Positions 60,715 through 64,000 of a DNA stretch of 64,000 bases are shown here, one piece after another; within the stretch, counting starts at the first letter, position 1; every line of letters starts with the position of its first letter. Position numbers and translations under genes: made by a program. The notes beneath the pieces are model-generated. The model was not told where the DNA came from and searched no databases. It was given only the letters and a program-made list of their open reading frames with translations. This DNA is from Escherichia coli (GTDB lineage: Bacteria; Pseudomonadota; Gammaproteobacteria; Enterobacterales; Enterobacteriaceae). Location: assembly GCF_016903815.1 (NCBI RefSeq), contig NZ_CP069973.1. One strand, given 5' to 3'.

Positions 60715-60851
60715 AATCTTAACTACAATATGATTCATTTTGATGATTGTTTCATAAGGAACAGTGAAGTAAGATCTAAGAGGAGTTAAATTTTATACAG
60801 TATAATCATAATATTGCAGCAAGGTGGTTATAATTGAAAGAATATTTAGAT

Positions 60852-62309
60852 ATGAATACATCTCATGTAAGAGTTGTTACTCATATGTGTGGGTTCCTGG
60901 TTTGGCTCTATAGTCTTTCAATGTTGCCACCAATGGTTGTAGCATTGTTTTATAAAGAAAAAAGCCTGTTCGTTTTCTTTATAACTTTCGTTATATTTTT
61001 TTGCATTGGTGGCGGAGCGTGGTATACAACTAAGAAATCTGGCATTCAATTACGTACCCGTGATGGGTTTATTATAATTGTAATGTTTTGGATTTTGTTT
61101 TCTGTTATTAGTGCATTCCCTTTATGGATTGACTCAGAACTTAATTTAACGTTCATTGATGCTCTGTTTGAAGGGGTTTCTGGAATAACAACAACAGGAG
61201 CAACTGTAATTGATGATGTTAGTTCATTACCTCGGGCATATTTGTACTATCGGTCACAGTTAAATTTTATAGGTGGTTTAGGAGTTATTGTTCTGGCGGT
61301 TGCTGTATTGCCATTATTGGGTATTGGTGGTGCAAAGCTTTATCAGTCAGAAATGCCGGGGCCATTTAAGGATGACAAACTCACTCCCCGCCTGGCCGAT
61401 ACGTCACGGACACTGTGGATAACTTATTCTTTATTAGGTATTGCTTGTATTGTCTGTTATAGACTTGCAGGAATGCCTTTGTTTGATGCTATTTGTCACG
61501 GGATTTCCACAGTTTCGCTTGGTGGTTTCTCAACTCATAGCGAGAGTATCGGATATTTTAATAACTATTTGGTTGAGCTGGTGGCTGGTTCTTTTTCCCT
61601 GCTATCGGCTTTCAACTTCACTCTTTGGTATATTGTTATTAGCAGGAAAACGATAAAACCTTTAATCAGAGATATTGAACTTCGTTTCTTTCTGTTAATA
61701 GCCTTAGGGGTGATCATTGTTACCTCTTTCCAGGTCTGGCATATAGGTATGTATGACTTGCATGGAAGTTTTATTCATTCGTTTTTTCTTGCCAGCTCCA
61801 TGCTCACTGATAATGGTTTAGCTACGCAGGATTATGCAAGTTGGCCCACGCACACGATAGTGTTTTTGCTGTTGTCAAGTTTCTTTGGGGGATGTATAGG
61901 TTCAACTTGTGGTGGAATTAAGTCACTTCGATTTCTTATACTTTTCAAACAAAGCAAACACGAGATAAATCAGCTTTCTCATCCCAGAGCGTTGTTGAGT
62001 GTAAATGTAGGAGGGAAGATAGTTACAGATCGTGTAATGAGGTCTGTATGGAGTTTCTTTTTTCTTTATACTCTCTTCACGGTGTTTTTTATACTGGTGT
62101 TAAATGGTATGGGATATGATTTTCTTACATCATTTGCAACAGTGGCTGCATGTATTAATAATATGGGATTAGGTTTTGGGGCTACTGCATCGTCATTCGG
62201 AGTGCTTAATGACATTGCAAAATGTTTAATGTGCATAGCTATGATTCTTGGTCGCCTTGAAATTTATCCTGTTATTATATTGTTTTCAGGTTTTTTTTGG
62301 CGCTCCTAA
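60852..62309 (+). CDS. trkG: Trk-system K+ uptake protein TrkG (prophage-encoded)
   Basis: 485 aa from MNTSHVRVVTHMCGFL, polytopic with TrkH/TrkG family topology. AT-rich. Confidence 0.85.
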   Translation: MNTSHVRVVTHMCGFLVWLYSLSMLPPMVVALFYKEKSLFVFFITFVIFFCIGGGAWYTTKKSGIQLRTRDGFIIIVMFWILFSVISAFPLWIDSELNLTFIDALFEGVSGITTTGATVIDDVSSLPRAYLYYRSQLNFIGGLGVIVLAVAVLPLLGIGGAKLYQSEMPGPFKDDKLTPRLADTSRTLWITYSLLGIACIVCYRLAGMPLFDAICHGISTVSLGGFSTHSESIGYFNNYLVELVAGSFSLLSAFNFTLWYIVISRKTIKPLIRDIELRFFLLIALGVIIVTSFQVWHIGMYDLHGSFIHSFFLASSMLTDNGLATQDYASWPTHTIVFLLLSSFFGGCIGSTCGGIKSLRFLILFKQSKHEINQLSHPRALLSVNVGGKIVTDRVMRSVWSFFFLYTLFTVFFILVLNGMGYDFLTSFATVAACINNMGLGFGATASSFGVLNDIAKCLMCIAMILGRLEIYPVIILFSGFFWRS

Positions 62310-62446
62310 TATATGGCTGATTTATAATTGTGAGTTTAATATTATGTTGACTCACTCATTGATCCAATACCTAACTTTACCAGCAACACCTCCGTCCCCA
62401 GTAGCACTGGCTGCTGGGGTGCGTTTTATTCATAAAGCAAGGCTGT

Positions 62447-63238
62447 ATGAGCGAGAAATTAAAGATAGTCTATCGCCCATTACAAGAATTGTCACCGTAT
62501 GCGCACAACGCCAGGACGCACAGTACTGAGCAGGTGGCACAACTGGTAGAAAGTATTAAGCAATTCGGCTGGACTAATCCGGTGCTGATTGACGAAAAGG
62601 GCGAAATTATTGCGGGTCACGGTCGTGTTATGGCGGCTGAAATGCTCAAAATGGATTCTGTTCCGGTCATTGTTCTGTCTGGCCTGACGGATGAGCAGAA
62701 AAAGGCGTACCGCCTGGCAGATAATCGCCTGCCGATGAATGCTGGCTGGGATGAAGATCTGTTGCGGATGGAGCTGTCGGACCTAATCAATGCTGATTTT
62801 GATGTCTCCCTGACAGGCTTCATCCCGACAGAAATTGATGAACTGTTGACGGATGTTTTGCCCGGTACAGGAAATGAGGAGGAGCCGTATACGACGAAAA
62901 TTGATACGCCTGTTTATGAGCCGTCGGGCGGTAAACCGGATATCAGTGAACTGTACGACGATACGAAAACTCAGGAGCTGATCAGCCGGATACGTTCGGC
63001 GTCCCTTGAGCCTGATATTGAGAAATTCCTCCTGTGTGCGGCAGAACGTCACACGGTGTTTAATTTCAGCAGAATTGCGGACTATTACGCTCACGCCCCC
63101 TCTGAAATTCAGTGTTTTTTCGAGGAGTCGGCGCTGGTGATCATTGATTATCAGCAGGCTATTGAAAATGGATTTGTCCGGATGACGCAGCGCATGGTGG
63201 AGATCATGCATGGTGGTGAGGAGGAGGAATATGCGTGA
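62447..63238 (+). CDS. ParB/Srx-like nuclease domain protein (full-length YnaK-like)
   Basis: N-terminal ParB-N pattern (IVYRPLQELSPYAHNARTHS...GHGRV), 263 aa. Confidence 0.6.
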   Translation: MSEKLKIVYRPLQELSPYAHNARTHSTEQVAQLVESIKQFGWTNPVLIDEKGEIIAGHGRVMAAEMLKMDSVPVIVLSGLTDEQKKAYRLADNRLPMNAGWDEDLLRMELSDLINADFDVSLTGFIPTEIDELLTDVLPGTGNEEEPYTTKIDTPVYEPSGGKPDISELYDDTKTQELISRIRSASLEPDIEKFLLCAAERHTVFNFSRIADYYAHAPSEIQCFFEESALVIIDYQQAIENGFVRMTQRMVEIMHGGEEEEYA

Positions 63239-64000
63239 TGATTTTTGCGCCTTTATTCTGACTCACGGGCGACCGGACAAAGTTCTGACTTACCGGACGT
63301 TGCGTCGTGCTGGCTATACCGGGAAAATTTTTATCGTTGTTGATGATGAAGATAAGACACGGCATCAGTACATGGCTGAATTTGGGGAACAGGTGCTGGT
63401 GTTTTCCAAAGCCGATATCGCCAGTCGTTTTGACGAAGCCGATAATTTCTGTGACCGCCGCTCAATTTTTTACGCCCGTAATGCCTGTTTCGACCTGGCA
63501 AAACTGGTCGGGTGTAAATACTTCATTCAGCTCGATGATGATTATCACGAGTTCCAGTTTCGGGTGGATCGCAACTATGACCAGGCCTATTTTCCGATAA
63601 GGAAACTGGATGCGATCCTTTCTGAAATGCTGGCGTACTACGAATCAATACCTGCTCTTTCCATCGCTATGTCGCAGGGCGGGGATTTTCTTGGTGACAA
63701 TGGCGGCCATGCTTCGTGGGTGAAACGCAAGGCAATGAACAGCTTTATCTGTTCGGTTGAACGACCGTTCTCATTCATGGGGCGCATTAACGAGGATGTG
63801 AATACGTACACGAATCTCGGTCGCTGTGGTGAATTGTTTATGACGATCGGTGCTGTCCAGTTAGGGCAGAAACAGACGCAGAAAAACAGCGGCGGAATGA
63901 CCGAGCTGTATCTGGATTCCGGAACCTACGTTAAAAGTTTTTACTCCGTCATGTATGCGCCGTCGTGCGTAAAAATCTCACTGATGGGTGCCAGCCATAA
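63235..64000 (+). CDS. Hypothetical protein with a GT-A-like DxD motif (3' end beyond the window), coupled to the ParB-like gene
   Basis: The ATGA overlap with the upstream stop starts MIFAPFILTHGRPDK..., with an FIQLDDDY motif. The frame is open to the window end. Confidence 0.5.

Follow-up and report, generated by a model that had tools for sequence, protein, structure and literature searches.

Two overlapping genes, called ORF1 and ORF2, were found on the plus strand at the end of a 64,000-nucleotide stretch of Escherichia coli DNA (contig NZ_CP069973.1; the whole stretch is referred to as the window). ORF1 was found to encode a partner protein with a ParB/Srx N-terminal module, followed by the presence of ORF2, which encodes a TET-associated glycosyltransferase (TAGT). 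Both proteins belong to known families, but the pair is a distinct and widespread variant in which the TAGT has an obligate partner with an undescribed domain and in which no precursor-making enzyme is found. The window sequence was 100% identical to that of E. coli strain 7/2, where the complete ORF2 contains 310 codons; the window holds the first 256 of these (predicted gene end at about 64163). In an earlier sequence-only reading of the window, too, the second ORF ran past its end. The genes of strain 7/2 were found on one strand in the order holin, lysozyme, Rz, trkG, ORF1, ORF2, a helix-turn-helix (HTH)-like ORF of about 70-83 aa, terS, terL and portal. The locus is the late region of an intact Rac-type prophage, and the pair stands just before the packaging genes, directly upstream of terS/terL and on the same strand as the lysis genes.

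Both ORFs are real, intact and under purifying selection. The dN/dS values were 0.11-0.15 for ORF1 and 0.06-0.07 for ORF2 (computed with closer orthologs, dS being saturated against distant ones), which is strong purifying selection, and ORF1 is the full-length ParB/Srx-domain protein that the sequence-only reading had described. The overlap of the two genes was found to be 8 nt (ATGCGTGA) instead of the ATGA given in that reading. A Shine-Dalgarno-like run (GAGGAGGAGGAA), made by the terminal Glu codons of ORF1, was found before the ORF2 start, which was confirmed by the PGAP call and by the N-terminus MRDDFCAFILTHGRP kept in all homologs. Overlaps between the partner gene and the TAGT gene were also conserved at other loci. 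Two antisense ORFs within ORF1 (62783-63211, minus strand, 142 aa; 62617-62823, minus strand, 68 aa) are shadow ORFs opposite a strongly constrained gene and showed no sign of being genes.

Table 1. Features of the partner-TAGT locus in window positions (CTD, C-terminal domain; NTP, nucleoside triphosphate; pLDDT, per-residue model confidence)
Feature	Position	Strand	Details
Intrinsic-terminator-like hairpin	62396..62419	+	10-bp stem, 7 GC pairs, T-rich tail (terminator scan)
ORF1, partner protein gene	62447..63238	+	263 aa, pI 4.5; ParB/Srx N-module, linker and CTD
ParB/Srx N-terminal NTP-binding-type module with helical extension	62447..62866	+	aa 1-140; Box II G57-H58-G59-R60
Linear motif Y148-T-T-K-I-D-T-P-V-Y-E158	62888..62920	+	consensus YTxKIxxPxYEP; in the linker; pLDDT <50 over residues 136-168
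Helical CTD	62951..63172	+	about aa 169-242; invariant residues include K174, R201, H202, Y214, E226 and D234
Coupling junction	63218..63238	+	ORF2 ATG 63231; ORF1 TGA 63236-63238 (read from sequence)
ORF2, TAGT gene	63231..64000 (off window end)	+	pI 8.6, basic

ORF2 was found to match PF20691 with 120.5 bits (cutoff 27.5; E 1.2e-34; model positions 4-205 of 205) and phrog_842 at 8e-98, and the glycosyltransferase-like character given to it in the sequence-only reading was thereby confirmed. The alignment of its homologs (E. coli, Yersinia, metagenomic phages, Lactobacillus phi jlb1, Vibrio pv27 and haloarchaeal HHTV-2; 41-73% identity) contained invariant R83, D102-D103-D104 and E188-D189 residues, the last followed by V190; the DDD motif lies at 63534-63542 and E188-D189 at 63792-63797. 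The clade was found to retain 40-47% identity across Gram-negative, Gram-positive, actinobacterial and haloarchaeal hosts. Residues 1-180 of the AlphaFold (AF2) model were confident and formed a GT-A Rossmann fold. The best Foldseek matches of this model were viral TAGT-domain proteins (E down to 1e-22), PDB GT-A enzymes being matched only generically (E ~1e-4, 9-16% identity), and no PDB match to ORF2 was found by sequence search. ORF2 is a GT-A-fold TAGT with an intact R..DDD..ED catalytic signature, its catalysis being predicted. The same signature, more fully R..DDD..ED(Y/F), occurs in the kinetoplastid JGT and in experimentally validated phage glycosyltransferases of 5-hydroxymethylcytosine (5hmC) (bioRxiv 10.1101/2023.12.21.572611). 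These two, together with T2/T6 Ggt, are the characterised TAGT branches with DNA-base glycosylation (PMC13216743; bioRxiv 10.1101/2023.12.21.572611), T2/T6 Ggt being counted in the family (PMC13216743, PMC13390438).

Two other identities were rejected. The T4-type GT-B DNA glucosyltransferases (PF11440, PF09198) did not apply, as ORF2 matched PF20691 only and its model was GT-A. A terminase identity was likewise dismissed, as neither ORF1 nor ORF2 matched any terminase family and a separate terS (Terminase_2, PF03592, 364 aa) and terL (Terminase_6N/6C) were found downstream. ORF2 thus proved to be a TAGT and neither a terminase nor a structural protein, the two identities that the sequence-only reading had held to speak against it, and the small-terminase-like function that it had also proposed was not borne out. 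The E. coli TAGT was found to contain a C-terminal tail of about 25 aa (locus L001, 21790-21864) that is absent from the other members (310 against about 288 aa). This tail overlaps the HTH-like ORF, which is 83 aa long in the same locus (L001 21800-22051) and of which a version of about 85 aa lies between TAGT and terS in nine enterobacterial loci; no family match was found for this ORF, which may be a packaging-specificity factor.

In ORF1, residues 10-144 were found to match the N-module of a ParB-fused DNA methyltransferase (PADLOC MTase_II PDLC03229, 1.5e-38, positions 13-151 of 436), and the N-module also matched positions 31-171 of 633 in phrog_498, annotated 'DNA methyltransferase'. 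These matches, together with a ParB-like activator of a thymine dioxygenase (PMC13229309), upheld the earlier statement that ParB-like domains partner with DNA modification. ParB_N was the only Pfam domain detected in ORF1; the scan revealed no methyltransferase and no HTH domain. ParB-methyltransferase fusions are enriched in prophages, and the ParB fold can bind CTP, ATP or GTP (PMC12704722). A partition ParB of the ParABS type was rejected: no ParA gene was found in the prophage, no parS-like repeat array was found locally, no HTH was present, and the N-terminus MSEKLKIVYRPL, as read from the sequence, lacks an LG(R/K)GL-type ParA-binding motif. The score against TIGR00180 was 38 bits, below the cutoff of 58. 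No evidence was found for the label 'nuclease' that the sequence-only reading had attached to ORF1, and this label was dropped.

The N-module is followed by the linker and the CTD. In the linker, Y148, P155, Y157 and E158 were found to be invariant from E. coli to the archaeal virus, and the linear motif is a putative docking segment for the TAGT or, less likely, its acceptor. The linker and CTD (residues ~145-263; CTD ~115 aa) gave no Pfam, NCBIfam, PDB or structural match, and all 22 invariant columns among distant partners were found to lie in them. An exhaustive HMMER search with the CTD only gave 1,183 representatives at 50% clustering, in which the CTD was always C-terminal; these proteins were mostly of 250-300 aa (ParB-N followed by the CTD), and some were of 130-190 aa. 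No fusion of ParB or CTD with TAGT was found among the 120 closest homologs or among the best 150 of the 1,183 CTD representatives, the longer proteins containing only ParB_N.

The pairing of the two genes was counted from both sides. With the TAGT as seed, an ORF1 homolog was found directly upstream, on the same strand and overlapping the TAGT start, in 89/89 viral loci, a count that includes one neighbour without Pfam match and a 139-aa 'hypothetical' protein of Vibrio phage pv27. With a CTD of Lactobacillus phage origin as seed, chosen against E. coli bias, the TAGT was found directly downstream in 77/79 loci; the two exceptions contained an insert between partner and TAGT, namely an NDP-sugar (nucleoside diphosphate sugar) epimerase/dehydratase in locus L110 and a radical-SAM enzyme in locus L165. 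The pairing is therefore near-obligate in both directions and was found in phages of E. coli, Lactobacillus, Nocardia and Vibrio as well as in a haloarchaeal virus. ParB-N was fused to the CTD in about 90% of the loci, and about 10% had the CTD alone; in five loci with a CTD-only partner (L009, L110, L120, L142 and L170), ParB-N was found nowhere in the locus. Since the CTD was never missing while ParB-N can be, the invariant core is the linker and CTD plus the TAGT. The mean pairwise identity was 0.42 for ParB-N, 0.56 for the CTD and 0.59 for the TAGT, and the divergence of the CTD followed that of the TAGT (Pearson 0.82) more closely than did the divergence of ParB-N (0.60). The partner had a pI of 4.05-4.94 in all 29 dereplicated loci and the TAGT a median pI of 8.9, the halophile excepted; the basic charge of the TAGT was concentrated in its poorly modelled C-terminal half.

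The neighbourhood counts covered 29 + 61 dereplicated loci, in which the only universal neighbours were the partner and the TAGT themselves. Downstream were found terminases of unrelated types (Terminase_6N in 35/61 loci, TerL_ATPase/HK97-like, and GpA/lambda-like) and portals, the terS/terL genes being P22-like, HK97-like and lambda-like, and upstream SSB, RusA, HNH or lysis genes. The pair constitutes ORF1/ORF2 of phage c5, immediately beside cos; terS/terL come next after it in phi jlb1, a few small genes separate it from the downstream terL in HHTV-2, and the Vibrio phages of about 191 kb carry it inside a replication module. As the pair stands immediately upstream of the terminase genes or beside cos in most carriers, and ParB proteins are site-specific DNA organisers, a packaging accessory (pac/cos recognition or a small-terminase-like function) or a regulator whose glycosyltransferase fold has no catalytic relevance was considered. 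Such a role is highly improbable: dedicated terS and terL genes follow downstream, the terminases accompanying the module are of at least three unrelated types and its neighbours in the Vibrio phages are replication genes, the catalytic residues are invariant under strong purifying selection, sugar-nucleotide tailoring genes are co-recruited, and the module has decayed in some viable phages of L. delbrueckii. In the L. delbrueckii phages KF188410/NC_022762 (phiLdb), KJ564037 (Ld17), AY739900 (LL-Ku) and KJ564036 (Ld25A), the TAGT was found to be split in two or reduced to a 45-aa remnant, which is fused under the ParB annotation. The decay of the module in viable dairy phages shows that it is accessory and not essential.

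Enzymes of sugar metabolism were found beside the pair in a part of the 61 loci. A short-chain dehydrogenase/reductase of the NDP-sugar 4,6-dehydratase/4-epimerase type was present in 6/61 loci (e.g. L110 434-1456; L129 3012-4034), and a UDP-galactopyranose mutase was found near the TAGT in L166 (7167-8306). These genes imply diversification of the donor sugar, possibly including galactofuranose. About ten loci contained 2-4 tandem TAGT paralogs behind a single partner gene (L105, L107, L121, L124, L126, L127, L131, L132 and L152), an arrangement suggestive of a di- or oligosaccharide built up step by step, and together the accessory genes fit a pathway building a mono- or oligosaccharide from NDP-sugars. 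A radical-SAM enzyme, generic, MoaA-like and below threshold, was found inside the module in 8-9/61 loci. This enzyme (about 320 aa; L165 936-1904, L107 7987-8946) is twitch-like and scored below all NCBIfam cutoffs. Some environmental phages carry it within the module or immediately behind it, and its task there may be sugar tailoring or preparation of the acceptor. The 5258-bp contig L110 was found to be a perfect inverted duplication of a unit of about 2.6 kb (CTD, epimerase, TAGT and a 103-aa ORF), probably an assembly or amplification artefact.

Upstream of the pair, the terminator-like hairpin was found to end 27 nt before ORF1, closing the low-GC trkG moron (GC 0.36-0.41 against 0.48-0.51 for the pair, whose composition is like that of phage late genes). 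The trkG gene (60834-62309), with its own strong terminator-like hairpin, is an insertion in the slot that separates the lysis cassette from the pair. That slot was found in a related Yersinia prophage (L004 2180-3332) to contain heat-labile-enterotoxin-like A (Enterotoxin_a/Scabin-like) and LT-IIB subunit genes, which makes it a cargo hotspot. The vicinity of trkG, a moron expressed in the lysogen, and the structural likeness of prophage GT-A enzymes such as TarP to phage TAGT-like enzymes would allow the TAGT to be a lysogenic-conversion enzyme that alters a cell-envelope polymer in the manner of prophage GtrB or TarP. That role is scarcely credible, as membrane segments are absent and the obligate partner is a cytoplasmic protein of ParB type, identity within the clade stays at 40-47% across hosts with differing envelopes, and the pair, past the trkG terminator, belongs to the late region and not to a lysogen-expressed cassette.

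The region was carried at least partly by about 1,600 of 5,426 complete E. coli genomes, and at least 80% of it by about 860-910. K-12 strains were found to match the window only to about 62700, followed by a jump to ydaY; ynaK is therefore the first ~85 codons of ORF1, the short remnant that the sequence-only reading had taken it to be. Chimeric ORFs were frequent in E. coli (Lom-ParB_N, ParB_N-terminase, NlpC/P60-TAGT and tail-fibre-TAGT; P0007, P0194, P0202, P0206, P0216, P0227, P0235 and others) and are consistent with independent deletion scars in decaying Rac prophages, comparable to the ynaK-ydaY junction of K-12 at about 62700. The Rac-type terS (L001 22055-23149) is unusually long at 364 aa; its Terminase_2 domain occupies only residues 122-321, and its N-terminal part was found to contain an HTH weakly similar to IS66 TnpA (4e-4), followed by the presence of a K/Q/A-rich low-complexity stretch.

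In the reading preferred here, which is given even confidence, the two genes encode the subunits of a nucleic-acid glycosyltransferase that is directed to DNA and expressed late by the intact Rac-type prophage. ORF2 would be the catalytic subunit, transferring sugar from an NDP-sugar in a metal/DxD-type reaction. ORF1 would be its obligate non-catalytic helper, a role assigned because of the analogy to a ParB-dependent dioxygenase and because its N-module is shared with DNA methyltransferase fusions; the linker motif and the CTD are predicted to dock on the basic C-terminal lobe of the TAGT, completing it and activating the enzyme, and the ParB/Srx N-module, where present, may provide NTP-gated engagement of the enzyme with double-stranded DNA (dsDNA). 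The module would be transcribed with the packaging genes, replicated phage DNA being glycosylated just before packaging, the most plausible benefit being protection from the nucleases of the next host cell. Late expression past the trkG terminator assumes read-through by an antiterminated late transcript, as we infer here. Antiterminated late transcription is established for lambdoid phages.

Several observations weigh against this reading. The partner is strongly acidic and without DNA-binding domain, its linker is modelled with low confidence, as is the C-terminal half of the TAGT, and its ParB-N is dispensable in the tenth of the loci mentioned above. Every characterised TAGT uses a pre-installed primary hydroxyl (5hmC, 5-hydroxymethyluracil (5hmU) or glucosyl-5hmC), which canonical DNA does not offer. 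The annotation and Pfam matches of the Rac-type prophage contained no recognisable TET/JBP dioxygenase or pyrimidine hydroxymethylase, none was found in the complete genomes of phi jlb1 (38 kb) and c5 (31.8 kb), and no such family recurred within 6-10 kb in about 90 dereplicated loci. No modified base was found for any carrier phage in the searchable literature. The same gap is on record in published surveys. In one survey a 'solitary TAGT' was reported in 288 of 753 glycosyltransferase-encoding phage genomes, and in another about 65% of glycosyltransferase contigs were without a 5mYOX or ThyS neighbour; glycosyltransferases without such neighbours were considered by the authors of the latter survey to be less obviously DNA-modifying. 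The DNA-modification module proposed in the sequence-only reading stands as the best-supported reading by homology and context, while the usual acceptor-making enzyme is absent; the anti-restriction role also proposed there is conjectural.

The acceptor could be a conventional hydroxymethylpyrimidine or another pre-modified base made by an unrecognised enzyme of the phage (the CTD, a small protein or the radical-SAM enzyme) or of the host. The invariant polar residues of the CTD exceed the needs of a passive adaptor, the radical-SAM gene lies inside the module in the 8-9 loci given above, and several prophage proteins are without family assignment. No hidden dioxygenase or hydroxymethylase was found in Pfam scans of 10 Rac proteins, 10 proteins of c5 and phi jlb1 and 10 cluster representatives, nor among the best 25 of the 91 Pfam families matched by 150 neighbour-cluster representatives, so that single weak matches could escape. 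Nevertheless, a helical domain of about 95 aa without metal or cofactor signature is unlikely to be a hydroxylase, E. coli and most of the loci lack the radical-SAM gene, and phi jlb1 and c5 contained no unassigned protein of TET/JBP or thymidylate-synthase-like size except for one 208-aa ORF without Pfam match. The DNA of E. coli, Lactobacillus and Haloarcula is not known to contain 5hmC or 5hmU. A pre-modified base of this origin is considered decidedly unlikely.

Glycosylation of a protein was weighed as well, either of the partner itself on its Tyr/Thr-rich linker in the manner of glycogenin, or of a virion or packaging protein. GREB1, a member of the TAGT family, is a protein O-GlcNAc transferase (PMC7968844), which also counts against a DNA-directed activity; the Foldseek matches include GT-A enzymes that glycosylate proteins and peptides, such as glycogenin, SunS/ThuS and ColGalT1; Y148 and Y157 are invariant in a disordered linker segment; and a partner that is itself glycosylated would account for a module complete with two genes, in which no DNA acceptor-making enzyme was found. 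These Foldseek matches represent generic GT-A similarity, at the E values and identities already given, the N-module is common to DNA methyltransferase fusions, and all characterised phage TAGTs act on DNA. The virion and terminase proteins were completely different among the carriers, which leaves the partner as the one candidate for a conserved protein acceptor. A protein target is thus thought to be unlikely. Modification of a nucleotide, a small molecule or an RNA (an NTP bound by the ParB/Srx module, or a host immune signal), with an anti-defence or metabolic role, is very unlikely: it has no precedent in the TAGT family, the late packaging-adjacent position fits it poorly, anti-defence functions being usually early, and NTP binding is not the core of the chemistry because ParB-N is dispensable in about 10% of the loci.

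Under the DNA-directed reading, the partner and the TAGT may glycosylate unmodified dsDNA directly, at a canonical base or native position and with no prior oxidation or hydroxymethylation, the CTD supplying acceptor specificity; this direct chemistry is proposed tentatively and is itself doubtful, with about half of the confidence placed in the DNA-directed reading. If true, it would be an undescribed DNA modification chemistry in hundreds of E. coli Rac-type prophages, in phages of Lactobacillus, Nocardia and Vibrio and in a haloarchaeal virus, and glycosylation of DNA without a hydroxymethyl precursor would count as a chemistry new to epigenetics or anti-restriction. A protein target would, to our knowledge, be the first non-DNA target of a viral TAGT. 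The acceptor is directly testable, because only two genes of a common E. coli prophage are needed and K-12 is without both. One large clade of 'solitary' phage TAGTs is in any case not solitary: it was found to have a near-obligate partner with an undescribed conserved domain, usually fused to ParB. No literature description of this pairing was found, though the TAGT-defining paper of Iyer et al. 2013 (NAR 41:7635) may discuss ParB associations, and a 2021 PNAS paper credits Iyer et al. 2013 with the proposal that ParB guides the modification machinery while DNA is packaged. No relevant literature was found on ynaK, the HHTV-2 ParB or GREB1-related Rac genes.

Among the known systems, the closest comparison is with the 5mYOX/ParB pairs. 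A phage ParB-like protein was shown experimentally to be an activator of a DNA thymine dioxygenase, needed specifically on dsDNA (O'Toole et al., PNAS 2026, PMC13229309); this 5mYOX ParB is specific for its cognate enzyme, which it is predicted to clasp between its two domains and proposed to keep on DNA (PMC13229309). Like these proteins, ORF1 was found to contain an NTP-binding N-domain and a C-terminal domain without HTH, in a gene beside that of the cognate DNA-modifying enzyme, and both kinds of pair are often near glycosyltransferases and terminase genes. Unlike in the 5mYOX/ParB pairs, the client here is a glycosyltransferase (at all 89 TAGT-seeded and at 77 of the 79 CTD-seeded loci) and no dioxygenase is present, and ParB-N can be missing while the CTD never is. 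If the present reading is true, ParB-assisted DNA modification would extend from dioxygenases to glycosyltransferases.

The metavirome GT-A enzymes (bioRxiv 10.1101/2023.12.21.572611) and JGT were found to have PF20691, the GT-A fold and the R..DDD..ED signature in common with ORF2, and sugar epimerases and tandem glycosyltransferases are co-recruited in some metavirome loci as in some loci of this clade. Those enzymes act after a methyltransferase/TET pair or JBP that makes the hydroxymethyl acceptor, whereas this clade has an obligate partner that looks non-catalytic. The T2/T6 Ggt (beta-glucosyl-HMC-alpha-glucosyltransferase) shares the Pfam family and phrog_842 with the ORF2 clade, but T6 Ggt scores 35.8 bits on PF20691 against 120.5 for ORF2, gave no hhalign alignment with the clade and was not found by tblastn at 1e-5; it adjoins a dCMP hydroxymethylase, acts on glucosyl-5hmC and is without a ParB/CTD partner. 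Because T6 Ggt is so distant, the name 'beta-glucosyl-HMC-alpha-glucosyltransferase' is transitive and unsupported for the clade. The source of this RefSeq product name is phrog_842, and the name was found on L007 6995-7858, L008 5995-6849, L091 835-1713, L009 6887-7888 and L172 2138-2923, in Lactobacillus, Vibrio, Porphyromonas and haloarchaeal viruses without an annotated hmC pathway, where it is likely a propagated mis-annotation; the clade thus flags a widespread mis-annotation of RefSeq phages.

In comparison with the ParB of ParABS systems, ORF1 has kept the ParB/Srx fold and the Box II arginine (G-H-G-R against G-E-R-R), but the Box II glutamate implicated in CTP hydrolysis is His in ORF1, and ORF1 is acidic. 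The ParB-N-DNA methyltransferase fusions (PDLC03229; phrog_498; PMC12704722) have a homologous N-module and the same enrichment in prophages; unlike in these fusions, the methyltransferase domain is replaced in ORF1 by the CTD, and catalysis is predicted to come in trans from the translationally coupled glycosyltransferase.

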